Of a stretch of DNA of 64,000 nucleotides, positions 1 through 31,432 are shown piece by piece. Below the pieces are notes generated by a model. The model searched no databases. It was given only the letters and a program-made list of their open reading frames with translations, and was not told the origin of the DNA. The stretch is from a virus (lineage: Duplodnaviria > Caudoviricetes), in the IMG/VR virus record IMGVR_UViG_3300048920_000114, positions 7,769 through 71,768 of that record; one strand, 5' to 3'. A program made the translations under genes and the position numbers. Position 1 is the first letter of the stretch. Each line of letters opens with the position of its first letter.

Positions 1-863
1 GCGTCAGAACCGATGGTACCCACGACGATGTCGCCTTGGTGGTCGTCGGCCGAGACCGGGACGTGCCTGGACAGAAGCGGCTGGCGGTTGAACGTCTCCG
101 CGGCCTTCTTCAACTCGTCCGGATGGCGCAGCAGCTTGTAGATCTTCTTCGGGTCGAGGCCGAGCTTCTCGTGGTTCGGGATCTCGCTCCCGAGGTACGG
201 GTTCACGCCCGCCTTCGAGATGTTGCTCTGCTGGACGTGCAGCCGACCGTCGGTGTCCTTGGTGCGGACCGACTTGTTGTCGTAGGGCAGGCCGCCCCTG
301 TTCATCTTGTCGACGCGCGGGTCGATGCCGTCCGGCGCGCGGTCCATCGCGATTCCGAAGAACTCGGCGATGTCGACGTCCTGCCGGCGCTCGGCCAGCC
401 GATCGAGGCGATTCTCGATCTTCAGACCGTTCAAGGTTTTCTCGACCTGCGGGTGCAGCGGCTCGGGAAGGTTGCCGGGCTTCACCCAACGATAGGCCGT
501 GTGTTCGTCGTTCAGCGTCGGCGTGAAGCGATCCTTCACGACACAATGGAAAGTGTGAAACACCATGCCGGTCGGGGTCTCGACCTCGCTGACGCAGACC
601 ATCGGGTCCGTCGCCAGATAGCCGACCTCCTCGCGCGCCTCGCGGATGGCTGCTTCCTCGGGGGTCTCGCCGGCCTCGGCCTTGCCGCCCGGGAGCGACC
701 AGTGGCCGCCGTAGTTCAGTTCGTCCTTCGACCGCTTGACCAGCAGCACGCGACCGTCGTTCTCGAACACGATCCCCGCCGCGATCGGCGCGCGGTCGAG
801 CGCGAGCGCCCCGGAGACGAGGAACGGGAAGATGCAGGTGCTGGTCAGGCCGCGAACGCGCAT
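1..863 (-). CDS. Nudix hydrolase fused to DUF2213-type putative prohead protease (3' end runs off the window; not in the ORF track)
   Basis: Manual translation from ATG 863, coupled TGATG to the GNAT stop: [26 protein letters not shown]... It has a perfect Nudix box [24 protein letters not shown] (about 620-690), then [32 protein letters not shown]...[24 protein letters not shown], typical of DUF2213. Confidence 0.9.
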
Positions 864-1297
864 CAAAGCTGTGGAACCTCTAGGGTGAGGGTGACCGCCT
901 GCTGGGCGAACCCGGTCTTGCGGTAGACCTCAAGAGCGTTTTTGTTTCGGACGTGCGTGGCGAGCTGGATCTTGACCAGCTTCAACTCGATGGACTTGGC
1001 GATCGCGAAGTTCAGCATCTCGGTGAAGACGCCCTGTCCGCGATGCTCCTCGACGACGAAGGCCTGGTAGATCCACATCGTCTTCGTCGGCTCGATCGTG
1101 TCCCAGGTCAGCACGCCGACCGCCTCGGGCTCGTGGCCGTCCTTCACGTAGGCGACGAAGGCCTTGTAGCTGAAGTGCATGTTCAGATCGCCGGAACCGA
1201 AGCCGTTCTGCTCGCCGTGAAGCCATCCTGCGACGGCGAGCTGCGAAGCCGGCGCCGCGTTCATGCTGTCGAACAGTTTGACCTCGATCTCGGCCAC
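863..1297 (-). CDS. GNAT-family acetyltransferase
   Basis: Acetyl-CoA motif [12 protein letters not shown], then [13 protein letters not shown]. Confidence 0.85.
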
Positions 1298-5112: not shown

Positions 5113-5427
5113 CTACGTCCGGATCTCGGGCTCGTCAACGTTGGCGCAGTCGACCGTTCGGCCCTTCCTGATGTAGCCGTGCCAGCAGGCTCCGCAGTTG
5201 ATCGAGGGGCTGAAGGTCGGCGACTCGCGGTTGCCGTCCCAATCCCACTGCGCGTGCCCGCCGTTCTTGTTCTGACCGTCGCGCTTGACGTCGGTCCTGC
5301 CGGCGATCAGCAGCGACCCGCAAGGCCGCTTGCGCTTCGGACAGGCGAAGTCGAAGTAGGCTTCCTGTCCCGGAGCGGCGTTCTCGTTCAGATCCTTGTC
5401 GAGGAAGGTGACCTTGGCGTCGGCCAT
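5113..5427 (-). CDS. DUF6527-like Cys/His protein
   Basis: WDWDGNRESPTFSPSINCGACWHGYIRKG motif; GTGATG coupling to the MuF stop. Confidence 0.65.
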   Translation of the reverse strand: MADAKVTFLDKDLNENAAPGQEAYFDFACPKRKRPCGSLLIAGRTDVKRDGQNKNGGHAQWDWDGNRESPTFSPSINCGACWHGYIRKGRTVDCANVDEPEIRT

Positions 5428-6263
5428 CACGAGAATCCTTTGATCATGGCGCGGGACACGCATTTGCAGTTGATCAGCTCGCCGGGCTGTATCCACTGGT
5501 TCACGGCGGGGTCGAACCAGCCCTTGGCGACCTCGTATACGACGCGATCCTTCCCGGCCTTCAGATGGGTGGGGCGGGGGTGCTTGCCGCCTCCGGAGTG
5601 AACCCACACGGCCGTCGTGACGCCTATCTCCAACTGCCGCGCCTTGTTCATCGCGGACGTCGCTTTGTTGTTCTGGTCGCGCGCGATCAGCTGGGCCCGA
5701 CGCTTCGTGACGCCGTAGTTCTTCTCCAGGCCCTTCGCGAGCGTGCCGAGGTCGCGGCCGGCCTTGACCGACTGCATCACCTGAACCTCGACGTTCTTCA
5801 GGTACTGCTGCGGGATCGATTTGATCAGGGCGACGTTCTCGGAGATCGTGGCGTTCAGGACGTCCCGCATCGCGGGCGTCATCGTGAACTTCACCGTGAA
5901 GCCGCCCTTCTTCAAGATCCGGGCGAGCTGCGCGTCGGTCCGCTTGTAGGCGGCTTTGCTGAAATACTTCGCGAGGTCGTCCGCGGCGTCGTCGAACGCG
6001 CGCAGCCATCGCTTCGAGAGGCGCCTGATCGCGGTGGTCAGGATGTTCGCCGGCATGTCGTCCAGCGCCATCTCCGGGCTGTAGTCCATCGCCATGATCG
6101 GGGTGTTCTGGTTGTACTTCGCTTCGAGCCAGTAGGTGACCGACTTGTTCATCTCCTCGGTCAGCTTCACCAGCTTGCGGCGGTACTCGACCTCGAGGCC
6201 GACGTTCGGGTGCAACGGCGCGAGCGTGACGTCCTTCGGCTTCTTCTTGGGCGCGCGGGCCAT
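5427..6263 (-). CDS. Phage head morphogenesis protein (MuF / SPP1 gp7-like), short form without a toxin extension
   Basis: RAQLIARDQNNKATSAMN...WVHSGGGKHPRPTH...PGELINCKC motifs; position after the portal. Confidence 0.9.
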   Translation of the reverse strand: MARAPKKKPKDVTLAPLHPNVGLEVEYRRKLVKLTEEMNKSVTYWLEAKYNQNTPIMAMDYSPEMALDDMPANILTTAIRRLSKRWLRAFDDAADDLAKYFSKAAYKRTDAQLARILKKGGFTVKFTMTPAMRDVLNATISENVALIKSIPQQYLKNVEVQVMQSVKAGRDLGTLAKGLEKNYGVTKRRAQLIARDQNNKATSAMNKARQLEIGVTTAVWVHSGGGKHPRPTHLKAGKDRVVYEVAKGWFDPAVNQWIQPGELINCKCVSRAMIKGFS

Positions 6264-6493: not shown

Positions 6494-6770
6494 GGTCGCC
6501 TCCCGGCTGAAACGTAGCGGTCGACGAAGCCGCCGAGCCCTCCTCGCCGCGCTCCCCCGGAGGGTTGTTCCCTCCCGCCATGTCGCGCAGCGCGTCGTCG
6601 AGGTCCTTCATGTCGCCCTCGGCCTGGGTCAGCGCCGACTCGTGCTTCTCGAACACCTCGTTCGCGCGGCTGTCGAAGCTGTCGACCCGGAGCGCCAGGT
6701 CGTCGGCGCGTTGGTCGAACTTCTTGCGGGTTTCCGCGACGCGCGCGGCGAGGGCTTGGAACTTGTTCAC
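6486..6770 (-). CDS. Coiled-coil hypothetical protein
   Basis: GTG start at 6770 with RBS aaggag; heptad-rich sequence. Confidence 0.6.
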   Translation of the reverse strand: MNKFQALAARVAETRKKFDQRADDLALRVDSFDSRANEVFEKHESALTQAEGDMKDLDDALRDMAGGNNPPGERGEEGSAASSTATFQPGGDRG

Positions 6771-6877
6771 GACTCGATCTCCTTGACGATCTTGACGGCT
6801 GCCCAGCACGCGCCGGCGAGGAAGCCGACGCTGAACCAGATGGGAAGGATCAGTAGCAACCACCACGCGCTGATCAC
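6767..6877 (-). CDS. Small membrane peptide (36 aa)
   Basis: Manual translation MISAWWLLLILPIWFSVGFLAGACWAAVKIVKEIES. Confidence 0.5.
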   Translation of the reverse strand: MISAWWLLLILPIWFSVGFLAGACWAAVKIVKEIES

Positions 6878-6881
6878 GGCG

Positions 6882-7085
6882 TCAATCCTCCAGGTCGGAG
6901 TAGTCTTCCTCGTAGAGATCCGGAGGGACGAGCTCGGGCTCGATGATCTCGTCGTCCTCGCCGACCTCGTTCAGGCCGTTCTCGCCCATGCCCGGAGGAG
7001 GGGCGGCCTCGGTGCGCTCCGCGAACCCGGCGAGGACCTCCTCGTCGGTCGGGACGCCTTCCTGCTTCTTCTTAGAGCTTGCCAA
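6882..7085 (-). CDS. Small acidic protein, candidate immunity partner of the portal ART domain
   Basis: 67 aa, very rich in D/E; overlaps the ART stop by 14 nt and has an RBS ggagga. Confidence 0.55.
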   Translation of the reverse strand: MASSKKKQEGVPTDEEVLAGFAERTEAAPPPGMGENGLNEVGEDDEIIEPELVPPDLYEEDYSDLED

Positions 7086-7510
7086 AGTTCACCTCCTCCA
7101 GCGTGATCTTGTTGTCGACGTTCGAGATCACCTTGAACCGCGTCCCGGCCTTGAACAGGACCTCGGCCTCGCCCGGATAGTGCGACAGCTTGGAGATGTC
7201 CCGGCCGGTCTTGCCCTTGACCTCGAACCGCGTGTTGCCGCCGAAGCCGCTCGCCGTGCTCGTGCTCGTGAAGCCGCGCTCCTCGATGATCATGCCCGGC
7301 TTATACATGGCGACCTGTTCCTTGGACAGGGTCGCGCCCCGGCGCGTGGTTCCCTCGTAGGTCGGCATCGTGTCGAGCGCCTTGTTCAGCGACGCGGCGA
7401 ACTTGTACTGCTCCTCGGTCATGATGCCGGCGCGAAGCTGGTTGTTGACCTCGCGGTAGTACGAGCCGCTGTAGGCCATGACCTGCGCGGCGTCGCCCGG
7501 CGTCATCTTC
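7072..7510 (-). other. ADP-ribosyltransferase domain (R-S-E class)
   Basis: AYSGSYYREVNNQLRAG...TRRG...GFTSTS...GEAEVLFKAGTRFKV. Confidence 0.88.
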
Positions 7511-10500
7511 TCGTAGGCCTTGCCGAGCGTCTTCAGCTTCTTCGCCGCGTTCGCGATCGCGGCCTTGGCGTTGCCGCTCAAGATCCCGTTCAGGGCCTCG
7601 TAGTGTTCCTTGGCCTCCGGGCTGTTCAGCGACGCCTCGAAGTCGGCCGCCTCCTTCTTGGCCTGCTCCTCGGCAGCCTTCTGCGCGGTGGTCGCCTTGT
7701 TGGCCTGGTCGACGTAGTTCTTCGACACCTCGAAGTTCTTCTCGACGGTCTTGTGATGCGACTTCGCGAGCGCGGTCGTCTCGGTGGGCGACAGGATGTT
7801 CTTCGCGTTTTCGACGGTGCCGCCGACCTGGGCGACTGCCTTGATCTTCTCCTTCGCGACCGTCTCCGGGTTCTTCATCGCCTCCGCGCTGAAACCCTTG
7901 GTGTTCTGCTGGAACTTCTCGAACGCGGCCTTGATGGTCGCGACGTCGGGGCCTTTCGACTTCTCGACCACCGCGGCCATGCCCGGGTTGTCCTTCAGCG
8001 CCTGCTCGGCGACCTTGGTGGTGACCGACGGCTCGGCAGGCTTCGCCGCCATCGGCGCGGCGTACGCGTTCGGGAGCTTCAGGTCCTGCTGCTGCTTGGT
8101 CGCGGCGTTGAACAGCTTCTCCAGCTTCTTCTTCTCGCCTGCGTCCGTGGCCGCGCTGAACTCGTCGGACAGCTTGTTCTTCACGGTGGCGAGCGCCTGG
8201 AACAGATGGGCCTTCAGACCCGTGACGCCGGCAGCGCCCAGGCCGTTTGCCTCGGCGCCCTCGATCAGCTTCTTCAGCATGTTCCGGTAGTGGGTGCCGG
8301 ACTTCGCGGGCTGTCCGAGATAATAGGCCGCGGTCGCGTGATAGTCGGCCTTCTCGCCCTTGCCGGTGTCCTTCCAGAGCCCGCCGAACGCGGTGACCTT
8401 CTTCGCGGCCTTGCCGGCCTTCTCGCCGGCCGGGGCGCTGGACGAGCCCGAGCCGGTGCCGAACTTGCCGTCCGGAGCGCGCGGGTGGTCAGACTCGTTC
8501 CACGTCGCCTCGTCCTGCGCCTGCTTCTTCGAGACGTCGATGATCTTGGCCGGGACGGAGATCCCGAGCGCGGCGCCCGTGGCGAGCCGCGTCTGTCCGG
8601 CCATCAGGTGCAGCTTGCCGTCCTTCTTCAGGATGATCGGCGGCGCGGTCTTGCCTTCCTTCATCTCCTTGATGATTCGCGCGCTGTCCCGGCGATGGCT
8701 GAAGGTGTCGTGAATCCACTTCTCGTTCTGGCCGAGGCCCTGCGCGGCCATCGAGTTGCCGAGCTGCTTCAGCTCCTTCTCGCTCAACGGCTCGACCGGC
8801 GCGGCGTCGTACTTGGCCTGGAAGTCCTCGCGGGAGGCGAACGCGTCGGGGAAGCGCGGCTTCGAGTATTTCAGATACTCGGTGCCGTACTCCCAATCGA
8901 GCTCCTTCGGGGTGTAGTCCCGCATCTTCTCGGGCGGGTGCGACTTCAGCTTCCCGAGGTCCTTGCCGCCCTTGACGGTGGTCGCGGAAGATCCCGACGA
9001 GCCTGATCCGGACGTGAACTTGCCTCCGTCGCGCGGGTGCTTGCTCTCGTCGAACTCAGAGTCGCCGGAGACGAGAAAAGGGACCACGCCGTCCTGCGCC
9101 GGCGCGTCCTTCCCTGCAGGGGGGTTCTTCGGCTTCTTCTCGCCGGTCGCGGGGCTGTTCTCGCCTTCCCCGGCGTCGTCGTCACCCTCGTCGCCCGTGC
9201 CGTCGTCCACGCCCTCCGCTGGAGGATCTGGAACGTCCTCGACGTCGATCCCGGCGTAGCCCATGTCCGGATCGTCCGCGACGCGGCGCCGCTCCTCGAT
9301 CGGGTCGATGGTTCCGTTGCCGATCAGGATGTCGCCGGTCTCGGCCTCGAGCTTCTTGACCTCCGCGCGCTCCTTGTCGGACAGGGACCACAGCGGCTCG
9401 AACGAGAAGGTGATCTCGGGGTCGATCTCGTTCCAGAGCGAAAGCTGGATCATCTGGATGATCGTCGTCAGCGGGTCCCGGAAGATGTTCTCCTGAGAGG
9501 CGTGGACGAAGTCGTAGAAGATCCGGACCTCGGCCTCGGACGACGCGTTCAGGCCCTTCGGCTGCAAGCCGAGGAGGATGGCCACCGGGATCGACGACAC
9601 CGACGCCATCTGCTCCTGAGCCTGGGCTTGCAGGGCGTCGAGCGTGCCCAGCGGGGTCGAGATGTTGAAGAACTCCTCGGTCTCCTTGTCGAGCGCCATC
9701 GAGCCGCTGTTCGTGCGGATCAGGTTGAACAGCTCCAGGCGGTCGAGGACGCTGTCGTCGCCTTCTCCGTCGCCGGCCTGAAGCACCGAGGCCATGTTCG
9801 TGTAGATGCCGCTGACCGAGAACGACTCGATCAGGTCGCAGACCGCCTGACGCGTGCGCAGCCAGTTGTCGACGTAGGGCTTCGCCATCTGCGACATCGC
9901 GAGGCCGCCGAACGCGTACGCGGGCTTCAGGATGTCGGGGACCTCGCGGCCGACCAGCGTCAGGAAGCGCGAGGCGTGGACGGGCGTCGCCATGACGTAC
10001 CACGTCGCGGGCTTGTACCAGTCGGCGCGCAGCGGGTCGGTCGAGTTGTAGTCCTGGGGGTAGGCCCACATCGGCTCGACGTTGCGGATGGCCTTCAGCG
10101 GGGTCTTCTTGCTGACCTTGCCCTTGCTGTTGTGGCCGCTGCCGATCGGCGTGCGCAGCTCGGTCGTCTCTGTGTCGACGCCGATGGCGCCCACGTCGAG
10201 GAAGATGTGGCCGCGCCCGAAGGCGTTGTCGTGCTCGGCCGCGACCCGGAAGACGTCGCGGACCTTCAGGTCCGTCATCCGCTTCTGGATGTCCTTGATC
10301 TTCGCGCCCTTCTCCTCGGAACGCTTCTTCTTCTCCGCGTCGTCCAACTCGCCATCGACGTCGCTGGTCACTTCGAGCTTGATCCACTTGCGGGTCATCT
10401 CGGTCGCGACTTTTTCGATGATCTTGCGGTACTCGGGCCGCTGCGTCAGCTCGGCCAGGTACGGGTAGCCGAGGAACGTCGTCCCCTCGGCGAACTGGAT

Positions 10501-10839
10501 TCCGTTGCCCCACGCCCAAGTGTTGACCGCGCTGACCGTGGACGTGCCGACCGGCATCTCGTCCATGGCGAGGGTCGCGGCGCCTTTCGGCAGCACGCCG
10601 GGCGCGGGCTTGAACGCCTGGAAGATGTTGGGCTTCGCCGCGATCGCGTTCCTGTTCTTGCGCTCGATCTTGCGGTGCGCGCTCTCCAGGGCTCGCCGGC
10701 TGACCTTCATGCGGCCCCTCGGCTTCGGCTGCTCCTCGGCCTGCGCCGGCTGCTCGGCGCCGTCGAGGTACTGCGTGATCCCCTTCAGGATCTCCTTGGT
10801 CGGGTCCGACGAGGGACGCTTGGTGCGGTTCACCGTCAT
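7072..10839 (-). CDS. DUF1073-family portal protein fused to a ParB/Srx-like domain and a C-terminal ADP-ribosyltransferase
   Basis: Portal core FLGYPYLAELTQRPEYRKI...IPVAILLGLQPKGLNASSEAE...FEPLW directly follows terL. The C-terminus has the VIP2-like R-S-E triad TRRG / FTSTS / EAEVLF. Confidence 0.92.
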   Translation of the reverse strand: MTVNRTKRPSSDPTKEILKGITQYLDGAEQPAQAEEQPKPRGRMKVSRRALESAHRKIERKNRNAIAAKPNIFQAFKPAPGVLPKGAATLAMDEMPVGTSTVSAVNTWAWGNGIQFAEGTTFLGYPYLAELTQRPEYRKIIEKVATEMTRKWIKLEVTSDVDGELDDAEKKKRSEEKGAKIKDIQKRMTDLKVRDVFRVAAEHDNAFGRGHIFLDVGAIGVDTETTELRTPIGSGHNSKGKVSKKTPLKAIRNVEPMWAYPQDYNSTDPLRADWYKPATWYVMATPVHASRFLTLVGREVPDILKPAYAFGGLAMSQMAKPYVDNWLRTRQAVCDLIESFSVSGIYTNMASVLQAGDGEGDDSVLDRLELFNLIRTNSGSMALDKETEEFFNISTPLGTLDALQAQAQEQMASVSSIPVAILLGLQPKGLNASSEAEVRIFYDFVHASQENIFRDPLTTIIQMIQLSLWNEIDPEITFSFEPLWSLSDKERAEVKKLEAETGDILIGNGTIDPIEERRRVADDPDMGYAGIDVEDVPDPPAEGVDDGTGDEGDDDAGEGENSPATGEKKPKNPPAGKDAPAQDGVVPFLVSGDSEFDESKHPRDGGKFTSGSGSSGSSATTVKGGKDLGKLKSHPPEKMRDYTPKELDWEYGTEYLKYSKPRFPDAFASREDFQAKYDAAPVEPLSEKELKQLGNSMAAQGLGQNEKWIHDTFSHRRDSARIIKEMKEGKTAPPIILKKDGKLHLMAGQTRLATGAALGISVPAKIIDVSKKQAQDEATWNESDHPRAPDGKFGTGSGSSSAPAGEKAGKAAKKVTAFGGLWKDTGKGEKADYHATAAYYLGQPAKSGTHYRNMLKKLIEGAEANGLGAAGVTGLKAHLFQALATVKNKLSDEFSAATDAGEKKKLEKLFNAATKQQQDLKLPNAYAAPMAAKPAEPSVTTKVAEQALKDNPGMAAVVEKSKGPDVATIKAAFEKFQQNTKGFSAEAMKNPETVAKEKIKAVAQVGGTVENAKNILSPTETTALAKSHHKTVEKNFEVSKNYVDQANKATTAQKAAEEQAKKEAADFEASLNSPEAKEHYEALNGILSGNAKAAIANAAKKLKTLGKAYEKMTPGDAAQVMAYSGSYYREVNNQLRAGIMTEEQYKFAASLNKALDTMPTYEGTTRRGATLSKEQVAMYKPGMIIEERGFTSTSTASGFGGNTRFEVKGKTGRDISKLSHYPGEAEVLFKAGTRFKVISNVDNKITLEEVNFGKL
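8440..8520 (-). repeat. Cargo-leader peptide repeat, copy 2
   Basis: AQD-EATWNESDHPRAPDGKFGTGSGS. Confidence 0.8.
9001..9099 (-). repeat. Cargo-leader peptide repeat, copy 1
   Basis: AQD-GVVPFLVSGD-SEFDESKHPRDGGKFTSGSG. Confidence 0.8.
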
Positions 10840-12173
10840 GGCAGGCGCCGTGAGCGAGCCATGCCGCGGGCTCGTTCGAGGGCGGATTTGTTGACCTTCA
10901 TCGGGAGCCTCGCGTGGGTCTTGTGCATGACGGCGAGGGCCAGCGACATGACGCAGTCGTCGTGGAACCCTTCCGGCGCGGAATATCGCACGCCTGTCCG
11001 CGTGTATTCAAACTCAAACTGATCGAGTTCCTGCTTGATGACGCCGTCCGGGAAGGCGACCTGACCGTTCTGGATGGCGACGGCGAGGCCCTCCATCAGC
11101 TTCTGCTTCGACGCCGGGGTGAAGGTGTAGCCCTCGTAGCGCGAGCCCGGGTCCTTCTGCAGACTCTCGGTGATGGCGTCGCCGACGCCCGTGTCGTCGA
11201 CCAGAGCGGGCTTCTTGCGCACGATGGAGTGGATGTTCGTGGTGATCGATTCCCACGTCGGGCCGCCGCCGCCCCATCGCCCGAATCGACAGACGCGCCC
11301 GTGGACGTCGAGGCCGGTGACGACCGTGTAGTCCTGCTTGCGCGCGAGGTCGACGCCGAAGACGACGGGTTCCGACTGGACGACGGCGGGGATGACGCAC
11401 TTCGCGATGTGGTGCAGGCCGAACGGGTTTCCGCCGTCGTCGCTCGGCTCGGCCAGGTAAAGCTCGCGGAACACTTGCTCGGGGAGGACCGACTTCGCGT
11501 CGTCGATCTCCTCCTGGTCGAGGACGCCCGCGGCCACGGCGTCGAGCGCGGTGATCTTGTGGTAGCCGATCTGCGGGTCGTTCTTCGCCTCGCCCTTGCG
11601 GGCCATCGTGTAGAACCAGTTCCGCCGACCCTTCACGTTGCCGATCAGGCGGATCTGTCCGCGCGTGGCGGTCAGGGTCGAGCGCACGGCGTACCAGGCG
11701 GCCTCCTTGACGCGGGAGGCTTCATCGATGACGGCGGCGTAGACGTCCTCGCCGTACAGGCTGTCGGGCTTGTCGGCGGACTTGAACCACATGACCGCGC
11801 CGTTGATCAGCGTGATCGTCTTCAGCGTGATGTTGGCGACGCCGATGTCCGGGGGAAGGGCGCGCAGGCAGCGGCGGAAGGCGATGTCGGCCTGTCCGGA
11901 GACAGGCGCCACCCACCAGAAGTTATGGCCCTCCTTGCCGTGCAGCGCCTTCTCGGTGAACCAGACGATGCAGCCCGAGGTCTTGCCGGCCTTCGTCGAG
12001 GCCTCGATGCAGCTGTACCGGCGCGGGTCGTAGATCGCCTGGAACTGCTTCTCGTAGAGGAACGGTCGCTCGAACTCGAGGAGATACTCCTCGATGTCGA
12101 TGGTCGCGCCCGTGGAGCCGGGCGGAAGCTCGAACTCGTCTTCCGGATCGAGCAGTTCCGCCTCGGCAAGCAT
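10836..12173 (-). CDS. terL: Terminase large subunit
   Basis: Walker A EASTKAGKT, Walker B AAVIDEA, GNVKG coupling motif, nuclease FGVDLARKQD and HDDCVMSLALA. Confidence 0.93.
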   Translation of the reverse strand: MLAEAELLDPEDEFELPPGSTGATIDIEEYLLEFERPFLYEKQFQAIYDPRRYSCIEASTKAGKTSGCIVWFTEKALHGKEGHNFWWVAPVSGQADIAFRRCLRALPPDIGVANITLKTITLINGAVMWFKSADKPDSLYGEDVYAAVIDEASRVKEAAWYAVRSTLTATRGQIRLIGNVKGRRNWFYTMARKGEAKNDPQIGYHKITALDAVAAGVLDQEEIDDAKSVLPEQVFRELYLAEPSDDGGNPFGLHHIAKCVIPAVVQSEPVVFGVDLARKQDYTVVTGLDVHGRVCRFGRWGGGGPTWESITTNIHSIVRKKPALVDDTGVGDAITESLQKDPGSRYEGYTFTPASKQKLMEGLAVAIQNGQVAFPDGVIKQELDQFEFEYTRTGVRYSAPEGFHDDCVMSLALAVMHKTHARLPMKVNKSALERARGMARSRRLP

Positions 12174-14842: not shown

Positions 14843-15343
14843 ATGTCAGACGCAGCATTCAAGGGCGCGCCCTACGGCGCCTACACCACGGACGAGCTCA
14901 AGGCCTTCATCGAGAAGAACCCGCAGCTCCCGGAGACAGCGAACAAGATGCGGGCAGAGCTGTTTCGCCGCGAGAAGGTCGCTGCCGGCGACGTCCAGGT
15001 CATGACCGATGGCGAGCGCCTGCGCTACGCTCGCGAGATGGAGGCCTTCGCGGCCAAAGGCGAGAAGATGCTGAAGGCGATCGCCGGCGTCATCACCGCG
15101 TGGGATCAATGGGCGGAAAGCAACGAGAAGGCTTCGCACGAACGCCTTCAGGCCGCGCTTCAGGTCATGGCCGAGTCGATGTACGCCGGGATGCCGATGG
15201 ACATGGTTCTAGAGGTCAGCATCGCCTACCTGATCATGCGCGACGGCGCGCCCGTCCCCTACGGGATCATCCCCGACATCAGCTTCGACGAGGCCCTGAT
15301 CCCGCTGCGCGCGATGACGCCTCCGAACCAGAGGACCGTCTGA
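14843..15343 (+). CDS. Hypothetical protein
   Basis: MSDAAFKGAPYG..., RBS gagga. Confidence 0.65.
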   Translation: MSDAAFKGAPYGAYTTDELKAFIEKNPQLPETANKMRAELFRREKVAAGDVQVMTDGERLRYAREMEAFAAKGEKMLKAIAGVITAWDQWAESNEKASHERLQAALQVMAESMYAGMPMDMVLEVSIAYLIMRDGAPVPYGIIPDISFDEALIPLRAMTPPNQRTV

Positions 15344-15438
15344 TGCGCGGCCTGATCCAGTTCCTGAAAAGCGACGAAGCCATGTCGTACGGCCTGATGT
15401 TCGCGAGCGTGTTCTTCATCGCGTCGGTGCTGCTGTGA
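15343..15438 (+). CDS. Small membrane peptide (31 aa)
   Basis: MRGLIQFLKSDEAMSYGLMFASVFFIASVLL, TGATG-coupled. Confidence 0.5.
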   Translation: MRGLIQFLKSDEAMSYGLMFASVFFIASVLL

Positions 15439-15725
15439 GTTGCTCTACCGCCTTCCCGCGATTCGACCTGTCGACGCTTCCGGAGATCCCCGAAGGGTTC
15501 GTCGACTCGTCGTGGCATGACGACGTTTGCCCTTCGTACATGAGCGAGGATCTCGGGCTTCAGATCTTCATCGACTACGTCGACGTCCAGGACCGCGAAT
15601 ATCCGAGGACGGCTCGCTTCAGCGTCTGCGACCTCGACCTCATGGCCGAGGGAAGGACTGAACTGAACAGCGACGACTGGAGCGAGATCCTCGCCTTCGT
15701 CGACACCCGGAGAAAATCATCATGA
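15435..15725 (+). CDS. Hypothetical protein
   Basis: GFVDSSWHDDVCPSY motif seen in small phage proteins; coupled. Confidence 0.65.
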   Translation: MSCSTAFPRFDLSTLPEIPEGFVDSSWHDDVCPSYMSEDLGLQIFIDYVDVQDREYPRTARFSVCDLDLMAEGRTELNSDDWSEILAFVDTRRKSS

Positions 15726-16159
15726 CCAGCGCGATGATCAGGACCCCGGAGGACGCGCGCGCATTCCTGACGGCGGGACGCGCGGTCCTGACCCTGAAAA
15801 GCCTTCGGACCGGCGACCACCTGACCTTCAAGGTGAAGGCGGCGACGAAGCCGGGCTCCGTCTCGCACTTCGTTTCGGTGCGCGCCGGATTTCCCGGAGA
15901 GAACAAGTTCAGCTACCTCGGCACGATCTCGGACACGGCGTTCAGGATCGGGCGCCGGGAGAAGACGCCCTTCGGCGAGAACGACCGCCAGCCGCGGGCC
16001 TTCAAGTTCCTGCTGGAGAACCTCGTCCGCAACCAGATGCCTCCGAGCATGGAGATCTGGCACGAGGGACAGTGCGGGCGCTGCGGACGCGCCCTGACCC
16101 ACCCGACCAGCATCGCCTCCGGGATAGGCCCGGAATGCGCACGAAAGATGGACCGATGA
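15722..16159 (+). CDS. DUF6011-like zinc-ribbon protein
   Basis: HEGQCGRCGRALTHPTSIASGIGPECA. Confidence 0.8.
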   Translation: MTSAMIRTPEDARAFLTAGRAVLTLKSLRTGDHLTFKVKAATKPGSVSHFVSVRAGFPGENKFSYLGTISDTAFRIGRREKTPFGENDRQPRAFKFLLENLVRNQMPPSMEIWHEGQCGRCGRALTHPTSIASGIGPECARKMDR

Positions 16160-16389
16160 GCAACCGCTTGAAGAAACCTGCCCTCAACTACCGGCTGACG
16201 CTGAAGACCGACGTCCTGAAGGCGCTGATGCTGGCGCCGAAGAAGCCGTTCACCTTCCTGCCGCTCTACGGGCAGGGGAACGAGATCAACGTCGCGATCT
16301 CGACCAGCATGGCCGACCAGCTCATGACGTTCGCCAAGCCCGGCGAGAACCTGTCCGACACCGTCGTGCGGATCTTGAACAGGCCATGA
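16156..16389 (+). CDS. Hypothetical protein
   Basis: MSNRLKKPALNY..., ATGA-coupled. Confidence 0.6.
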   Translation: MSNRLKKPALNYRLTLKTDVLKALMLAPKKPFTFLPLYGQGNEINVAISTSMADQLMTFAKPGENLSDTVVRILNRP

Positions 16390-17947: not shown

Positions 17948-18387
17948 AACCGCTCGTCATCGGCCAGGCGCCGAGCAGCTCATCGAACCCCGACTGGCCG
18001 CTGTCCGGAAGATCCGGGCGGCGGCTGGCCGCGCTGTGCGGCGTCGACGAGGCGGACTTCCTCGAGCATTTCGACAGGGTCAACCTGATCCCGACGTTCC
18101 CGGGGAAGGCCGGGAAGGGCGACGCCTTCCCGATCAATGAGGCGCGGCGCTCGGCGATGGTCGTCCGCAACATGCGGCCACGGCAGGTCATTCTCCTGGG
18201 AGACAACGTCCGCCGCGCGTTCGACGTCGTCGAGGGCGCGCCCCTGTTCAGGTGGTTTCGGCTCGGGCCTCACCGCGCCGCGATCGCGCCGCACCCTTCG
18301 GGGGTTTCGCGCTGGTGGAACGAGCGGGAGAACGAACAGCGCGCGCGGTCTTTTTGGCTTTCGCTGGCAACAGGACGCCGTCTCTGA
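17944..18387 (+). CDS. Uracil-DNA glycosylase-superfamily protein
   Basis: Motif A VIGQAP, SGRSGRRL, VILLG, motif B HPSG..RWWN. Confidence 0.8.
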   Translation: MKPLVIGQAPSSSSNPDWPLSGRSGRRLAALCGVDEADFLEHFDRVNLIPTFPGKAGKGDAFPINEARRSAMVVRNMRPRQVILLGDNVRRAFDVVEGAPLFRWFRLGPHRAAIAPHPSGVSRWWNERENEQRARSFWLSLATGRRL

Positions 18388-19795
18388 TCGCGGCGGCGAT
18401 GTGCATCATCATCACCGGAGGGACGGAGTTTCCGAGCCGCTCCCACTGCTGCGCGTACTTCCCCTTCAGGACGAAGTCGTCCGGGAATCCGCAGATCCGC
18501 TTCAGCTCGTCGATCGTGAAACGTCGTTTCTTCGTGACGCCCGCCTCGTCCTTCGTCCAGATCTCGCCGGCGGGGTTCAGGCCGTTGCCCGCGCTCGGGC
18601 CCGTGCCGATGGTGGCCGACGGCATGTCGGGCGAGTCGATCTGCACGTTCCCGAAACCTCCCCGGCCTCCGATCCCCGTGATCTCCTCGACCACCTTGTA
18701 GTGATGCGAGGCGTTGCCGGCCTTGCCGTTCGTGATCGTGGGGCAGGGCCTGTCCGTGACGTCCCGGGCGCCGGCGAACGTCCCGCTGCCGCCCGTGTCG
18801 TGAATCACCTTCACGTCGTCCTTGACCATGATGTGATGCGGCGTGGTGACGATGGTCGCGCACGGCCTGTCCATCATCTCGCCGGCCGACTTGAAGGCGC
18901 CCTGCATGTCGTGGACCGCGCTCGACAGGTGCGGGAGGGCGTCGCGCACGCTGTAGCGATACTGCAGCGGTACCGGGAACACCGGGTCACCGGGAACGTC
19001 GTCCCGCACGCCGACGAAAATGATGCGCTGTCTCGCCTGGGGGACGCCGAGCCACTGAGCGTCGAGCAGCTGCGCCTGGACGCGGTACCCGACCTTCAGC
19101 CGCTTCAGGATCTCGAGGAAGTAGCCCTTGGCCGCCCCCTTCACGAGGCCCGACACGTTCTCGGCCACGAACACGCGCGGCATCAGTTCGTCCCGCAGCT
19201 TGCAGTATTCGAAGAACAGATCCTCGTTCTTCTGGCTGGCGCCGTGCTCGTAGTGCTTGTCCTTGCCCCATCCCTTCTCGCGCTGCCCCGCCGTCGAGAA
19301 CGCCTGACAGGGCGGCGACCCGTCGAACACGTCGAGCTCGCCGGGCTTCAGCCCGACCTGCTTCAGGATCTCCGCGCCCTTGAGCAGCTTGATGTCGCGC
19401 CCGTCGATCTGCGTGTAGTCGGCCTTGTTCGCGGCGTAGCTGTCCTGAGCGACGGGAACGAACTCGTTGGCGAGGAGGACTCGGTACCCGGCCATCCGGT
19501 ACCCGGTCGAAGATCCGCCGCAGCCGGCGAACGTCGAAACGACGGTCAGACCATTCCACGGGATCTTCCGGATCTCGCTCATGAGGGGGACGCGGTAGGG
19601 AGGCTTGCTGTCGTCGGTCACGTAAGGGTCTCCGTCATACTCGATGTGATGTTGGCTCACGAAGGCGCCGGCGATACCGGTTGCCGAGACCGTCGGGGAC
19701 GGGTCGACGTCGAGGTCGGTGATCCTGTCCGGGGTCTTCGACGTCGGGATCTTCTTGCGGAAGTTTCCGTCCCTGACCTTCAGCAAGAAGACCAC
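18248..19795 (-). CDS. DNA (cytosine-5) methyltransferase
   Basis: Motif I FAGCGG, motif IV GSPPCQAFS, motif VI ENV, motif VIII QARQR, motif X LGNSVPP; the start codon is uncertain. Confidence 0.93.
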   Translation of the reverse strand: MVFLLKVRDGNFRKKIPTSKTPDRITDLDVDPSPTVSATGIAGAFVSQHHIEYDGDPYVTDDSKPPYRVPLMSEIRKIPWNGLTVVSTFAGCGGSSTGYRMAGYRVLLANEFVPVAQDSYAANKADYTQIDGRDIKLLKGAEILKQVGLKPGELDVFDGSPPCQAFSTAGQREKGWGKDKHYEHGASQKNEDLFFEYCKLRDELMPRVFVAENVSGLVKGAAKGYFLEILKRLKVGYRVQAQLLDAQWLGVPQARQRIIFVGVRDDVPGDPVFPVPLQYRYSVRDALPHLSSAVHDMQGAFKSAGEMMDRPCATIVTTPHHIMVKDDVKVIHDTGGSGTFAGARDVTDRPCPTITNGKAGNASHHYKVVEEITGIGGRGGFGNVQIDSPDMPSATIGTGPSAGNGLNPAGEIWTKDEAGVTKKRRFTIDELKRICGFPDDFVLKGKYAQQWERLGNSVPPVMMMHIAAAIRDGVLLPAKAKKTARAVRSPARSTSAKPPKGAARSRRGEARAETT

Positions 19796-23176: not shown

Positions 23177-25684
23177 CTAAAACACCGTCGAGGGCGGCTC
23201 GTCGCCCATGCTGGTGATCTCTTGCCCGGTCGCCTGATCGACGATCGGTTCTTGCTTCTTCTTCTTCGGCGCCGGCGGCCACTGTATCCCGCGGCCGAAG
23301 ACGCGCTTCCCGGTCGGCCAGACGTAGTGGATCATGCGCTGGCGCTCGCCTTCCTCGGGGACGTGGTCTGGATCTGGCATCTCTGAAATCCCTATGACGT
23401 TCGCCGGCAGCAGCTGATCGCGGAATCGCTTCGTCTGCGCCTTCATCTTGTTGCGGTACTTGTCGTGCGTCTCGCCTTCCTCCTGCGGGACGGTCTTCTT
23501 GTACTCGAGCCCGAGGTCCACCCACCGAACGACGTACATCACGTCCCTGCCGACCTCGAGGCCGGCGGGCGGCTTCATGGCTAGGCTGCTGTTCATCACG
23601 CGCAGCAACGCCTTGAACAGGCCGGCGTTGTTGTCGGTCAGGAAGAAGCCCTCCGGGCGGTCCTTGTTGCTGTTCTCGATCACGCTGTCCGGGATGTGCT
23701 GCGTCGGCTCGACCGAGACCATGCTGGTGATGTCGTCGCCGTCCTCGTCGACCCCGATCTTCACCTTGCTCAGAACGAAGCTCCAGTTCAGGCCGTCGTC
23801 GCCCTCGCGCTGCTTGTTGACCTTCACCCGGCGCATGACGCGCCCGTCCTCGTCCCGCTTCTCTTTGACGTTGGCGCCCTTGCCGTGCTGCTTGTCGTCC
23901 TCGAACACGCGCTCGACGAGGAGCGCGGCCTCGATGTTGTTGAAGAAGATCTCGTTGCCGCGGTGCTTTCCCTCGGCGTTCGTGTGGCCGACGATCCAGA
24001 GCGGACAGGCCGTCTTGTCCTTCACGATGGCGTAGTTGTTCATGATCTTGTTCAGATCCTCGCTCTTGATCTCGCTCGACCCGCGCGTCGCCGCGTTGTG
24101 GGTGTCGACGATCGTGGCGGCGTAGGGCAGCTTGAACCGCTCGGCCAGCTTCAGGATGTCCTCGGCCAGGCTGATCGCGTTGTCCTCGTCTGCGTACAGG
24201 TTCGGCGGACGGGTCAGCCACGCGAACGAGTGGAGATCCTCGGGGTGGATGCCGTGATGCTTCAGGTATGCCCGGAGGCGATTCTCGAAACCGGTCGCGC
24301 CCTCGTAGGTCAGATAGACGAACCCGCCCGGCGTCACCTTCTTGCCGGCGAACTGCTTCCCGAAGTGGACGTGCATGGCCATGTCCAGCGTCTCGAAGGT
24401 CTTCCCCGATCGGCTCGGGCCCATGATCAGGAGGTTGTCGTCCATCGGTACGATGCCCTTGATCCGCCACGGGTAGGCGCGGACGGGCGCCCCGAGATCC
24501 CGCGCGGTGCGCGCGCCGTACTTCGACTCGTAAGGCTTCGGCGTCCACGCCGGCAGGCCGTCCACGATCTCCAGCAGCTGCTCGCGTGTGCCTCCGCTTT
24601 CCCGCCAGTCTTTGACGTCGCCCTTCACCGGGCAGGCCGGCCACACGTCCTTGAAGTTCAGGGTCCGCACGCCGGCGCCGACCGCGGTCAGCATCGCGCC
24701 TATCTTGTCGGCGCGCTCGGAGCCCGCCTTGTCGTTGTCCTTCAGGATCACGACGTCCCGCGCGTTGCGGAAGAACTCGGCGCAGGCCTGGGTGAAGTTG
24801 CCGGCGCCGCCGCTGTTCGTCACGGCGAGGAGACCCCACTCGATCAGGACGTCGACCTTCGCCTCGCCCTCGGGCAGGAAGATCGTGCGCTGCTCGTCGC
24901 GCTCCTCGGTCAGCTCGGGCGCGACGTCGGCGGCGTTGTAGAGCCACGGCTCGATCGGGGGAAGATCGGTGAAGTAGCGACGCTGTGTCAGTTTCCAGTC
25001 GACGAACTTCTTCTCGTCGAAGCGCATCCATGTGTCTTTGTAGAGCATGAACTCTTGCGGGTTGCCGCGCCCGTCGTCAGTCGACAGCGACCAGATCCAC
25101 TCGCCCTCGGGAGATGGCCGACGTTGCATGAACGTCTTCCAGGGCTTGCCTTCCTTGGTCAGGTGCCACGAGCCGTCCGGAAGCCGCTTCTGGCTCCTTA
25201 TCGTCTCGTAGAGGAGCGTCCCTTCGGGGCTGTAATACTGCCACGCTTTGACGATCTCGTTCTTGCCTTGCGCTTTCGCAGCGTCTCGGCGAGCCCGACC
25301 CTCGCCATCTGGTGAAGGACCCGAGTCGCCGCCTGTCCTCTGCTCAGGCTTGGGTGAAGCGACAGCTCGCGCGCGATCAGGTTTTCCCACAGCTCGTCCG
25401 GCGTCTCCGGACAAGGTGACGCCGACCTGCTGCGCGAGTTCCTTGACCGCGTCGACGAACGAGTAGCCTTCGAAGGTTTGGAGGTAGTCGAAGCAGTCCC
25501 CCGGCTTTTCCCCGCCATTGCCGAACTCCTTGTAGAAGCCTTTGCTGTCGCTGATCGTGAACGACGGGTTGTCCGCCATCACGAACTCGGACCCCTGTTT
25601 GCGCAGGGCGTTCTTCTTGCCGATCAGATCCGACAGCACGACTCGGCTGCGGATCTCATCGAGTTCTCGTTCTTCGAATGCCAT
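23177..25684 (-). CDS. DnaG-type primase (TOPRIM) fused to a RecA-like/AAA_25 helicase
   Basis: DnaG-like N-terminus, TOPRIM LPEGE...DNDKAG, Walker A GPSRSGKT, Walker B IVDT, VGH motif. Confidence 0.9.
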   Translation of the reverse strand: MAFEERELDEIRSRVVLSDLIGKKNALRKQGSEFVMADNPSFTISDSKGFYKEFGNGGEKPGDCFDYLQTFEGYSFVDAVKELAQQVGVTLSGDAGRAVGKPDRARAVASPKPEQRTGGDSGPSPDGEGRARRDAAKAQGKNEIVKAWQYYSPEGTLLYETIRSQKRLPDGSWHLTKEGKPWKTFMQRRPSPEGEWIWSLSTDDGRGNPQEFMLYKDTWMRFDEKKFVDWKLTQRRYFTDLPPIEPWLYNAADVAPELTEERDEQRTIFLPEGEAKVDVLIEWGLLAVTNSGGAGNFTQACAEFFRNARDVVILKDNDKAGSERADKIGAMLTAVGAGVRTLNFKDVWPACPVKGDVKDWRESGGTREQLLEIVDGLPAWTPKPYESKYGARTARDLGAPVRAYPWRIKGIVPMDDNLLIMGPSRSGKTFETLDMAMHVHFGKQFAGKKVTPGGFVYLTYEGATGFENRLRAYLKHHGIHPEDLHSFAWLTRPPNLYADEDNAISLAEDILKLAERFKLPYAATIVDTHNAATRGSSEIKSEDLNKIMNNYAIVKDKTACPLWIVGHTNAEGKHRGNEIFFNNIEAALLVERVFEDDKQHGKGANVKEKRDEDGRVMRRVKVNKQREGDDGLNWSFVLSKVKIGVDEDGDDITSMVSVEPTQHIPDSVIENSNKDRPEGFFLTDNNAGLFKALLRVMNSSLAMKPPAGLEVGRDVMYVVRWVDLGLEYKKTVPQEEGETHDKYRNKMKAQTKRFRDQLLPANVIGISEMPDPDHVPEEGERQRMIHYVWPTGKRVFGRGIQWPPAPKKKKQEPIVDQATGQEITSMGDEPPSTVF

Positions 25685-29717: not shown

Positions 29718-30065
29718 ATGTGGATCTGTTTGAACGACGCCTTCCTGTCGATCGTGAAGAAGGACTGCGCGAACGACGAGCTGCTCGTCCGCGCGCGGCG
29801 CAAGGGAGACATCGAGAAGGTGTTCTCCGGCGCCGTCGTCACCCGATACACGAAGTCGGATTACCTGTTCCGTGCGCGCGTGAAGGTGTCGGCCGTGTCG
29901 CAGGTGATGATCAACGAGGCCACCCGCATCAACTACGCGAACTTCAAGAACAGCGTGAAGGACAAGGACCTTCACGACGCCTACCTGAAGATCTGGACCG
30001 CGATGGCCGCCCTCCAGCCCACCGAGCCGTACACCGGGAAGAAGCGAAAGGTCGCGAAGCGATGA
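29718..30065 (+). CDS. Conserved phage hypothetical protein
   Basis: MWICLNDAFLSIV...LLVRAR...DYLFRA...NYANFK. Confidence 0.75.
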   Translation: MWICLNDAFLSIVKKDCANDELLVRARRKGDIEKVFSGAVVTRYTKSDYLFRARVKVSAVSQVMINEATRINYANFKNSVKDKDLHDAYLKIWTAMAALQPTEPYTGKKRKVAKR

Positions 30066-31432
30066 ACATGCACGTCCCAGCCCTGAAGCGCAGCCTTCAG
30101 GACGTCGTCGCGGAGTACGACCTGAAGCGCGCCGGCATCGACGAAGCGATGGCCGCCCACAAGCGCGCCTGCAATGACCTGAAATCCTCGGCCGCGGTCG
30201 GCGGCACGTTCGGAGCCTACGTTCTTCACAGCCTCGCGGACAACGTCCACCGCAGCGACATGGAGAAGGCGCTGCTGAAGTCGGCGTGGCTTCACGTCTA
30301 CGAGGGCCTGAGCATCAATGTCGTCGCCAGCGCGCGCGATCGCAAGCTGTTCGAGCAGTCGATGGAGAAGCCGGCGCCGTTCACGCTGGAGAACATAGGC
30401 GCCACGTTCGGCCGCTACATCCTCGACCCGCGCGGCAACATCCTGCGCGGACTCGCGGAGACGTTCTGCTCGCTCGACCAGTCCTACAAGAGCCACGAGA
30501 AGATGAAGATCGGCGTCGCCGGGCTTCCGAAGCGGATCGTTCTGTCCAACGTCGGCTCCTATGGATCTCGCGGGCGCGAGGAGTTGAAGGACGTCCTGAA
30601 CGCTCTGGCGTCCTACCGCGGCGAGCCCTTGATCGAGAACGTGGATCTGAGGCCGATCGATGATCTTCACAGCTCGATCAGGGCGACGTCCGGCCAGGTC
30701 GTCATCCCCGACAAGCTCGACGAGGACGGGAAGGTCATCCGCAGGGGCGGACTGACCATCAAGAAGTTCCTGAACGGCAACGCGCACCTGATGTTCAACC
30801 AGGCCGCGCTGCGCGACATCAACAAGGCGCTGTCCGACTACTACGGCGAGGTCCTGCCCGACTGCCCGGAGGAGCGCCCGGCGAAGCAGGCGTCGACCGA
30901 GGTCAGTAAGGACCTTCAGTTCTACCCGACTCCGTCGAGCGTGGTCGCGCTGACCCTGCGGAAGATCGCGCACAAGTTCGGCGACGACTTCCTGAAGGGG
31001 AAGAAGTTGCTCGAACCGTCGTGCGGAGACGGGCGGTTCATGGTCGCCGCCCACGCCAAGGGCGCCAGCCCCTTCGGCTTCGAGGTCGACATCAACCGGA
31101 CCCTGGAGTGCAGGAAGCGCGGCCTGCGCGTGCTGTGCGCGAACTTCCTCGAGACCGAACCCTGCGGCACCTACGACGTCGCGCTGATGAACCCGCCGTT
31201 CTACGGCAAGCATTACGCGAAGCACGTCCGCCACGCCTACAAGTTCCTGAAGCCGGGCGGGCGCCTGATCGCGATCCTGCCGGCGACGGCGCGCGACCAC
31301 GGCTTGCTCGACGACGTCGGCGTTCGGTCCCGCTACATGGACGCCCCGTGGGACGACCTCCCGGTCGGCTCGTTCAGCGAGTCCGGCACCAACATCAACA
31401 CCGTCCTGTTCATCGTCACGAAGGAGTCCTGA
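30062..31432 (+). CDS. DUF4942-domain class I SAM-dependent (N6-adenine type) DNA methyltransferase
   Basis: QFYPTP, LEPSCGDG, MNPPF, LKPGGRLIAILP. Confidence 0.88.
   Translation: MNMHVPALKRSLQDVVAEYDLKRAGIDEAMAAHKRACNDLKSSAAVGGTFGAYVLHSLADNVHRSDMEKALLKSAWLHVYEGLSINVVASARDRKLFEQSMEKPAPFTLENIGATFGRYILDPRGNILRGLAETFCSLDQSYKSHEKMKIGVAGLPKRIVLSNVGSYGSRGREELKDVLNALASYRGEPLIENVDLRPIDDLHSSIRATSGQVVIPDKLDEDGKVIRRGGLTIKKFLNGNAHLMFNQAALRDINKALSDYYGEVLPDCPEERPAKQASTEVSKDLQFYPTPSSVVALTLRKIAHKFGDDFLKGKKLLEPSCGDGRFMVAAHAKGASPFGFEVDINRTLECRKRGLRVLCANFLETEPCGTYDVALMNPPFYGKHYAKHVRHAYKFLKPGGRLIAILPATARDHGLLDDVGVRSRYMDAPWDDLPVGSFSESGTNINTVLFIVTKES

Follow-up and report, generated by a model that had tools for sequence, protein, structure and literature searches.

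A portal protein fused to an ADP-ribosyltransferase in a complete tailed-phage genome: domain map, precedents and a candidate cleavage code

The subject of this analysis is a single long gene of a tailed phage (Duplodnaviria; Caudoviricetes), which encodes a portal protein that continues, in the same open reading frame (ORF), into a string of cargo domains ending in an ADP-ribosyltransferase (ART). The stretch of DNA analysed, hereafter the window, comprises 64,000 nucleotides and corresponds to bases 7769-71768 of a 71,768-bp IMG/VR record (IMGVR_UViG_3300048920_000114); window numbering is used throughout unless stated otherwise. The source sequence has a G+C content of 64%, and the record bears 127-bp direct terminal repeats and is rated 100% complete by CheckV. 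The gene occupies 7072..10839 and runs over 1255 codons from an ATG start to a TAA stop (stop codon 7072-7074). It lies on the minus strand, a detail absent from an earlier, sequence-only reading of this DNA, as do all other features of this genome described below except where a plus sign is given.

The portal-cargo gene

Three kinds of match identify the N-terminal part of the protein as a portal. PF06381 (Phage_portal_3, formerly DUF1073) covers residues 126-501 at near full length (E 3.6e-74, 250 bits; profile positions 2-354 of 357), matches to PHROG portal profiles extend over residues 113-575 (phrog_146, E 1e-101), and a sequence search of the PDB finds the gp19 portal of E217 and Pa193 (E 1e-31 to 4e-32). 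On this basis the portal domain proper is placed at residues 113-545 (9205..10503). Before it lies a candidate propeptide, residues 1-93 (10561..10839), which ends in L-A-M-D93/E (the slash marking the candidate cut) and is proposed from motif conservation in relatives; after it comes an acidic, low-complexity linker, residues 546-593 (9061..9204), in which A-Q-D583/G and S-G-D593/S are candidate cuts. The sequence-only reading had divided the ORF into a DUF1073 portal region of roughly 570 residues, an acidic linker and some 680 residues of cargo, and our searches uphold this division, with the PHROG match reaching about residue 570 and about 660 residues of cargo following the linker.

The ORF itself, likewise reported in that reading, has the properties of a real gene. 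Its G+C content at third codon positions (GC3) is 0.94, typical of genuine genes in a sequence of this composition. Two contigs encode an identical protein of 1255 residues, one from a JGI metagenome and the other a 37.8-kb Logan/SRA contig from an independent assembly of a different run. The fusion is therefore no one-off assembly error. The sequence-only reading had named a stop after the portal, in homologues or reads, as the sign of an artefact; instead, homologues at 45-82% identity keep a single open frame through portal and ART, and many of these portal-ART homologues sit on contigs of about 70 kb. Searching with the cargo only retrieved 38 related proteins, about 30 of which join PF06381 to PF03496, several with NUDIX in addition, and BFVD already holds other portal-ART fusions. 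Inspection of the linker sequence revealed no convincing slippery site for a frameshift to a cargo-less portal. This region contains a run of six C (9119-9124) and, just past the portal domain, an off-frame TGA (9182-9184).

Profile searches of the complete genome gave one match to PF06381 and none to PF04860, portal families other than these two not having been searched; the 1255-residue ORF is therefore the phage's only detectable portal. Of its 80 nearest relatives among IMG/VR portals, 54 lack an extension, 26 are longer by more than 150 residues and 10 bear the ART, which indicates that the cargo is an optional, swappable accessory.

The likely position of the cargo can be read from solved portals. 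In E217 and Pa193, the C-terminus of the portal forms a barrel that projects into the head, and a further 240 C-terminal residues are invisible in the maps. The linker of the present protein aligns just beyond the C-terminal barrel helix of the E217 portal, a helix that points into the head. Since the C-terminal barrel of this portal family is directed inwards, the extension should lie inside the capsid, in up to 12 copies per virion. At the other end of the chain, the first 93 portal residues of Pa193 virions are absent both from the map obtained by cryo-electron microscopy (cryo-EM) and from liquid chromatography-mass spectrometry (PMC11456595).

Domains of the cargo

The cargo ends in an R-S-E ADP-ribosyltransferase domain (residues 1096-1255; 7075..7554), recognised from Pfam matches, structure and catalytic motifs. 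Both ADPrib_exo_Tox (PF03496; E 8e-11, 42.1 bits against a cut-off of 23.4) and ART (PF01129; E 4.5e-8, 33.1 bits against a cut-off of 22.3) match within residues 1101-1249. In alignments, the motifs TRRG (1165-1168), FTSTS (1190-1194) and EAEVLF (1224-1229) fall on the R, STS and ExE catalytic elements of Tre1 from Serratia proteamaculans and of the two Pfam families, and the corresponding codons lie at 7339-7341 (R1167), 7258-7266 (S1192-T-S) and 7162-7170 (E1224-A-E1226). Across 34 sequences (P0001, the protein described here, and 33 homologues), conservation is complete for S1192 and E1226 and reaches at least 90% for R1167 and E1224; in the homologues P0004 and P0005 the STS and ExE motifs are degenerate.

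By sequence, the nearest solved protein is Tre1 (6DRE/6DRH; E 2e-15, 27-30% identity), followed by XopAI, Vis, ExoS/T and SpvB. The same neighbourhood emerges from an AlphaFold2 model of residues 800-1255, whose mean predicted local distance difference test score (pLDDT) is 89 and exceeds 90 over the ART domain. Foldseek aligns the ART model to Tre1 with E 4e-10 and a target template-modelling score of 0.83, and VIA-align gives Z 20.7 with a root-mean-square deviation of 2.0 Å over 175 residues; XopAI and HopU1 reach Z of about 19. As modelled, the domain has the ART fold, a split beta-sandwich with N-terminal helices. The claim of the sequence-only reading that all three catalytic elements are intact thus stands, in the alignment to Tre1 and in the kind of structural model that it had proposed. 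In characterised R-S-E enzymes, an E-x-E sequence in the ADP-ribosylating turn-turn (ARTT) loop goes with arginine specificity. From the E-x-E loop, and by analogy with its relatives, the domain is predicted to be an arginine-specific enzyme of the Tre1/C3/VIP2 class. The target of Tre1 is FtsZ, which is not transferable to the phage enzyme at 27-30% identity. Tre1 also differs in being delivered on the PAAR spike of a type VI secretion system (T6SS) and in having an ARH-type immunity partner.

Nearer to the portal, residues 625-775 (8515..8967) form a compact domain (AlphaFold2 pLDDT 96), here called domain A, which carries an AGQTR motif and which profile and structure comparisons suggest to be ParB/sulfiredoxin-like. 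A search of 1.84 billion proteins places 108 clusters (50% identity) in its family, and many members are stand-alone proteins of 130-180 residues. No Pfam family, including PF02195 and DdrB-ParB, matches domain A at E ≤1, and ParB_N is touched by one of 35 family members (E 0.054). Within those 35, G748 and R751 of the AGQTR motif are invariant, and a profile built from them finds Helicobacter pylori ParB in the PDB (4UMK, E 1.2e-3), with GNTR falling on the GERR box. Structural searches point the same way at modest scores: 9 of the 11 VIA-align matches with Z ≥2, the best of which reaches only 5.5, are chains of sulfiredoxin (Srx), Osa, PadC, SerK, SbnI, KorB, ParB or Spo0J, and Foldseek returns Srx, ParB, Osa, KorB and Noc nearly throughout, with E-values of 0.013 or worse. 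A further VIA-align match is Atu1540, an uncharacterised protein that we take to be ParB-like. Domain A has several carriers, namely portals, DUF2213 proteins, a protein that combines a Zeta kinase with an ART, and ART-only proteins.

Between domain A and the ART lie two helical domains (residues ~819-924 and 939-1109; 7555..8424), modelled by AlphaFold2 with pLDDT above 90 and common to a subset of the homologues. Over residues 819-1109, VIA-align returned generic helical matches alone (Z ≤8) and the ESM Atlas nothing usable. The cargo had been described in the sequence-only reading as one block with an ART at its end; the ART remains, and the single block gives way to a ParB/Srx-like domain, two helical domains and the ART, arranged in tagged modules.

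Junction tags, candidate cleavage sites and the head module

The tags in question share the consensus E-x-x-HPR-x3-GKF, and one heads each cargo module, preceded by an A-x-D site. The first, SEFDESKHPRDGGKF, spans residues 594-608 (9016..9060); the second, EATWNESDHPRAPDGKF, spans residues 777-793 and follows A-Q-D776/ at what we call junction 2 (8461..8514). The window contains no further copy. In most of 39 sequences (P0001 plus 38 homologues) the tag occurs one to three times per protein, always at domain boundaries, and it is present in cargo carried by DUF2213 and MuF proteins too. The closest homologue, P0002, whose portal domain is 82% identical, lacks domain A and exactly one tag, from which it appears that tag and domain act together as a cassette. 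The sequence comparisons show such modules to be freely exchanged between carriers and lineages. The MuF-ART of phage Xp12, on the other hand, was checked for the tag and has none, which shows that not every head-fused ART is tagged.

The sites that precede the tags belong to a wider pattern. In an ORF set of 20,950 residues, all seven AMD tripeptides (7/7), a motif chosen after the data had been inspected, fall in the major capsid protein (MCP), a Nudix-DUF2213 protein, the MuF protein and the portal, four proteins that account for 12% of the residues, with 3.7 expected anywhere in the set. They comprise QIAMD/AQ in the MCP, four sites (plus one TMD) in the Nudix-DUF2213 protein, one at residue 58 of MuF and LAMD93/E in the portal. 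The MCP site reads h-A-[M/L/V/F]-D/A-Q-P in relatives, is AMD in 24 of 35 and aligns with SAMD64/S of PB1, while the portal N-terminal site of relatives is AMD, AQD or ALD, some 20 residues before the portal domain. Per 1000 residues, AMD occurs in relatives 3.4 times in DUF2213 proteins, 4.0 times in their scaffold parts, 2.7 times in MCPs, 1.0 times in portals and 0.6 times in MuF proteins, against 0.11 times in other ORFs and none in large terminases (TerL) or decoration proteins. Overall, A-[M/L/Q]-D is enriched 10-35 times in head-internal proteins, and the same motif stands at the maturation site of the capsid protein. Upstream of the tags, A-x-D-[A/E/S/G] occurs within 11 residues in 52 of 73 cases, compared with 4% of control windows, and Ala is at P3 in 55 of 72 tag-upstream sites. 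Junction 2 of the present protein, A-Q-D776/E, is canonical and identical in form to the portal N-terminal sites of relatives.

A candidate for the protease is encoded nearby. The Nudix-DUF2213 protein has 670 residues, of which the N-terminal part is encoded at 1..866 and the remainder beyond the window (G000 6622-8634, locus L002); it was identified by PF00293, PF09979 and phrog_2229, 'head maturation protease' (E 2e-116). DUF2213 has an invariant His and Ser at HK97-like spacing. The assignment of DUF2213 as protease draws on the PHROG annotation, on this spacing and on a reference to a capsid-processing serine peptidase by Iyer et al. 2022 (PMC9503650). In the ESM Atlas, the DUF2213 domain matched unnamed clusters and YonD_N alone. 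The HK97-type S78 prohead protease (PF04586) was not found in the profile searches; the T4 gp21-type, S49 and ClpP families were not searched. The MutT-like Nudix module of the same protein is bracketed by ALD/RAP and AMD/RAP, with four more [AT]MD sites in the scaffold part, and may therefore itself be freed as a packaged enzyme, at a copy number like that of a scaffold. In relatives, Nudix sits on the portal instead of on DUF2213.

The closest parallel comes from PB1, E217 and Pa193 (PDB 8FVH, 9B41), whose portals (gp18/gp19) belong to the same family. PB1 has the same head order of portal, 278-residue MuF, DUF2213 protein, decoration protein and MCP, and PB1-like portals also bear C-terminal cargo, which is invisible in cryo-EM and InPase-like according to Iyer et al. 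2017. AMD or ALD motifs again mark the portal N-terminus, the start of the cargo and the MCP maturation site. In PB1 these are VAMD76/S near the N-terminus of the portal and EALD590/D between its barrel and the InPase-like domain (gene at 9111-11420 of PB1), and SAMD64/S in the MCP (15217-16365 of PB1), immediately ahead of the point at which the cryo-EM model of the Pa193 capsid protein begins, residue 66 (PMC11456595). PB1-like phages differ in that their cargo is a single domain of 130 residues, with neither HPR..GKF tag nor ART. A literature search on capsid maturation sites of PB1-like phages returned nothing relevant. From the presence of A-x-D at the MCP site, in head proteins and before the tags we infer release of the modules by the head protease, and judge it about an even bet from sequence that this protease cuts after the Asp of A-x-D and frees tagged modules. 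The broader proposal is more tentative, and we would sooner doubt than accept it: that DUF2213-type phages in general, the therapeutic PB1-like phages of Pseudomonas included, cut after A-[M/L/Q/x]-D and that the tag becomes a new N-terminus serving as a retention or ejection signal.

The genes around the portal form a head module. Read along the minus strand, two small ORFs and the large terminase precede the portal-cargo gene; three small ORFs, MuF, a PF20137 gene, several unknown ORFs, a GNAT gene, the Nudix-DUF2213 gene, a decoration-type minor capsid protein and the MCP follow it. The large terminase (10836..12173; PF17289 and PF04466) is directly upstream, and its stop overlaps the portal start. 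The MuF head-morphogenesis protein (5427..6263; PF04233, and phrog_324 positions 61-320 of 624) is the short form that the sequence-only reading took it for, with 278 residues, a MuF domain alone and no C-terminal toxin. Right after it lies a gene for a protein of 104 residues (5113-5427) that matches PF20137 (BubE). The GNAT acetyltransferase (863-1297; 144 residues, PF00583 E 6e-11) has neither tag nor AMD site, and at its stop it overlaps the beginning of the Nudix-DUF2213 gene. The genome also holds tail sheath and tape-measure-like genes, which mark the phage as a myovirus. A module matched by phrog_21413, an insert of about 70 residues, is present in both the decoration protein (residues 160-230; L002 5589-6551) and the tail sheath (residues 155-228; 61626-63359), so that these two surface proteins apparently have an exposed module in common. 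A 1364-residue ORF next to the tail genes (48106-52200), without a PHROG match, is the sole TMD protein outside the head module (FTMD/S, residue 1180) and could encode a fibre or a different large protein of the virion. Non-structural genes include a C5 cytosine methylase (18248-19795), a DUF4942-methyltransferase protein (29720-31432, +), a 631-residue ParB_N protein with a helix-turn-helix (41432-43327, +) and a primase/AAA_25 helicase (23177-25684); the two methylases suggest anti-restriction modification of the DNA. No integrase, resolvase or tRNA was found in the complete genome, and the phage accordingly looks virulent.

Fate of the cargo and biological meaning

We propose, with a probability of roughly 0.65, that the ART, fused to the phage's sole portal, is packed in the head, cut free, injected and active early on the host. 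The portal domain would form the usual dodecamer at the DNA entry vertex, and up to 12 cargo copies per virion would be loaded in this way without a separate packaging signal, each a stack of tag, ParB/sulfiredoxin-like domain, tag, two helical domains and ART. During maturation, the phage protease, probably the DUF2213 part of the neighbouring protein, would cut the A-x-D sites, removing portal residues 1-93 and freeing a ParB-like module and a helical-ART module, each with an HPR..GKF tag at its new N-terminus. The freed modules would accompany the DNA out through portal and tail; within minutes of infection, the ART would then draw on host NAD+ and modify arginines of host proteins, in the manner of T4 Alt. 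From the topology of the homologous portal, encapsidation of the cargo is likely; by analogy with T4 Alt, its ejection and the early action of the ART are plausible.

Several precedents bear on this proposal. The analogy with T4 Alt and with MuF-borne ART toxins, drawn already in the sequence-only reading, is the best-supported one. Alt, an R-S-E ART, is synthesised late, enters the head and undergoes processing by the prohead protease; injected with the DNA, it acts on host proteins early in infection (summarised in PMC5512222 and PMC9503650). It differs in being a free protein with a capsid-targeting sequence that takes it onto the scaffolding core, whereas the ART here is translated within the portal and is closer to Tre1 and HopU1; an Alt-like way of working would thus not rest on family membership. 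The MuF-ARTs of Xanthomonas phage Xp12, Pseudomonas phages PaMx28 and AAT-1 and Stenotrophomonas phage DLP4 belong to the same ART subfamily (34-40% identity); in them the enzyme forms the C-terminal tip of a head-morphogenesis protein whose gene lies beside that of the portal. Their carrier is MuF rather than the portal, however, while the MuF of the present phage is free of cargo, and the 1192-residue Xp12 protein has a zinc-protease-like HExxH module in place of the HPR..GKF tag. The paper on MuF toxins by Jamet et al. 2017 (PMC5576092) makes no mention of an HPR tag or of cleavage.

In architecture, the protein belongs with the polyvalent proteins defined by Iyer et al. 2017, in which, as that paper describes (PMC5512222), PBECR, 2H and InPase domains are fused to portal and MuF proteins, no macromolecule-modifying domain is commoner than the ART, and ParB-like domains too are listed; fusions of ART and Nudix to portal, MuF and the capsid-processing peptidase are named there and in the 2022 paper (PMC9503650). 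As in these proteins, whose phages package DNA by a terminase-portal system, a head-assembly domain is followed here by a string of unrelated enzymatic modules, and portal, ParB/Srx-like domain and ART occur in one chain inside the head module. The differences are that these papers are computational, that neither an HPR..GKF tag nor an A-x-D code is described in the portions of them available, and that domain A matches neither the DdrB-ParB Pfam family nor any other Pfam model. The portal-fused ART class has therefore already been described computationally, and the arrangement is less novel than the sequence-only reading implied; a literature search found no experimental paper on a portal-fused ART.

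Several considerations weigh against the proposal. Packaging, cleavage, ejection and activity of a portal-fused ART are all inferred. Twelve cargo copies of 72 kDa must fit into the head and pass the tail channel unfolded, as is known for other ejection proteins. S-G-D593/S, the candidate cut at junction 1, fits the A-x-D consensus poorly, even with A-Q-D583/G also on offer, and A-x-D could simply belong to the structure of the tag; the choice of AMD after inspection counts here as well. A comparison of an alignment of 54 DUF2213 sequences with HK97 gp4 by hhalign yielded no more than a 16-column match with a probability of 0.3%, and so does not confirm the protease assignment. The lack of an antidote or eraser gene, for which profile searches of the genome with ARH (PF03747) and Macro (PF01661) were negative, fits a lytic phage but yields no positive clue to function.

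Of the alternatives, the one that survives best is that the cargo stays tethered to the portal and is never delivered, acting late in the producing cell or in the capsid, for example by modifying phage or host proteins at assembly, by organising the DNA end or as a structural plug. The weak site at junction 1 speaks for it, as does the portal C-terminal extension of E217 and Pa193, which is encoded and has never been seen either free or attached. It would also suit an idea of Iyer et al. 2022 (PMC9503650), namely that ARTs associated with packaging shield the packaging machinery. We nevertheless consider it unlikely, as the catalytic residues of an enzyme with a diffusible substrate are strictly conserved, junction 2 has the A-Q-D/E form of portal N-terminal sites, and the modules also occur free-standing and tagged, or on MuF and DUF2213 carriers, which points to a role independent of the portal.

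Somewhat less probable still is that the packaged ART acts on nucleic acid (DNA of the host or of a competitor, mRNA or tRNA) or on a small molecule such as a signalling nucleotide of defence, with the ParB-like module alongside. The closest relatives by sequence and fold, Tre1, HopU1, Vis, ExoS and C3-like enzymes, are protein-arginine ARTs, and the E-x-E of the ARTT loop is associated with arginine specificity. The idea nonetheless draws on the ParB/Srx-like fold in the cargo, a fold that in Osa and similar proteins has been connected with NTP-dependent nicking of DNA, and on ARTs of conflict systems that act on DNA or RNA, such as DarT and CmdT (the latter in bioRxiv 10.1101/2024.02.24.581662). 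A polymorphic toxin for bacterial competition, released with phage particles and killing non-lysogens in the style of the MuF toxins of temperate phages, would share its domain grammar with the MuF polymorphic toxins (Jamet et al. 2017, PMC5576092), and the closest solved ART is indeed an interbacterial T6SS toxin. This we regard as highly improbable: the complete genome holds neither integrase or resolvase nor an immunity-like ARH or macro gene, and the fusion partner is the essential, sole portal. Practically negligible is the chance that assembly or sequencing error produced the fusion, or that the gene is decaying, and that the true portal ends after the linker, given the identical ORF in JGI and Logan assemblies of different samples, the single frame held by homologues, the GC3 along the ORF and the conserved catalytic triad.

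The portal-cargo protein is thus a real and well-preserved example of a class predicted from genomes since 2017; the present analysis adds a complete map of its domains, including a module that resembles ParB and Srx, and lends quantitative support to an A-x-D cut site that it would have in common with PB1-like phages. Proteins injected with the DNA act before phage gene expression and so decide the first minutes of the encounter with host defences, and fusion to the portal would give a fixed dose of ART, up to twelve copies per virion, with no need of a separate packaging signal. The phage offers a clean test case, in that its genome is complete and has one portal gene, the enzyme is intact and the candidate cut sites are clear; the motif analysis also ties it to PB1, E217 and Pa193, for which virion preparations exist. 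Should the cut-and-tag scheme hold, a free Nudix hydrolase, a ParB-like enzyme and an arginine-specific ART would be injected by this phage, and the injected proteome of hundreds of uncultured phages would become readable from their sequences.

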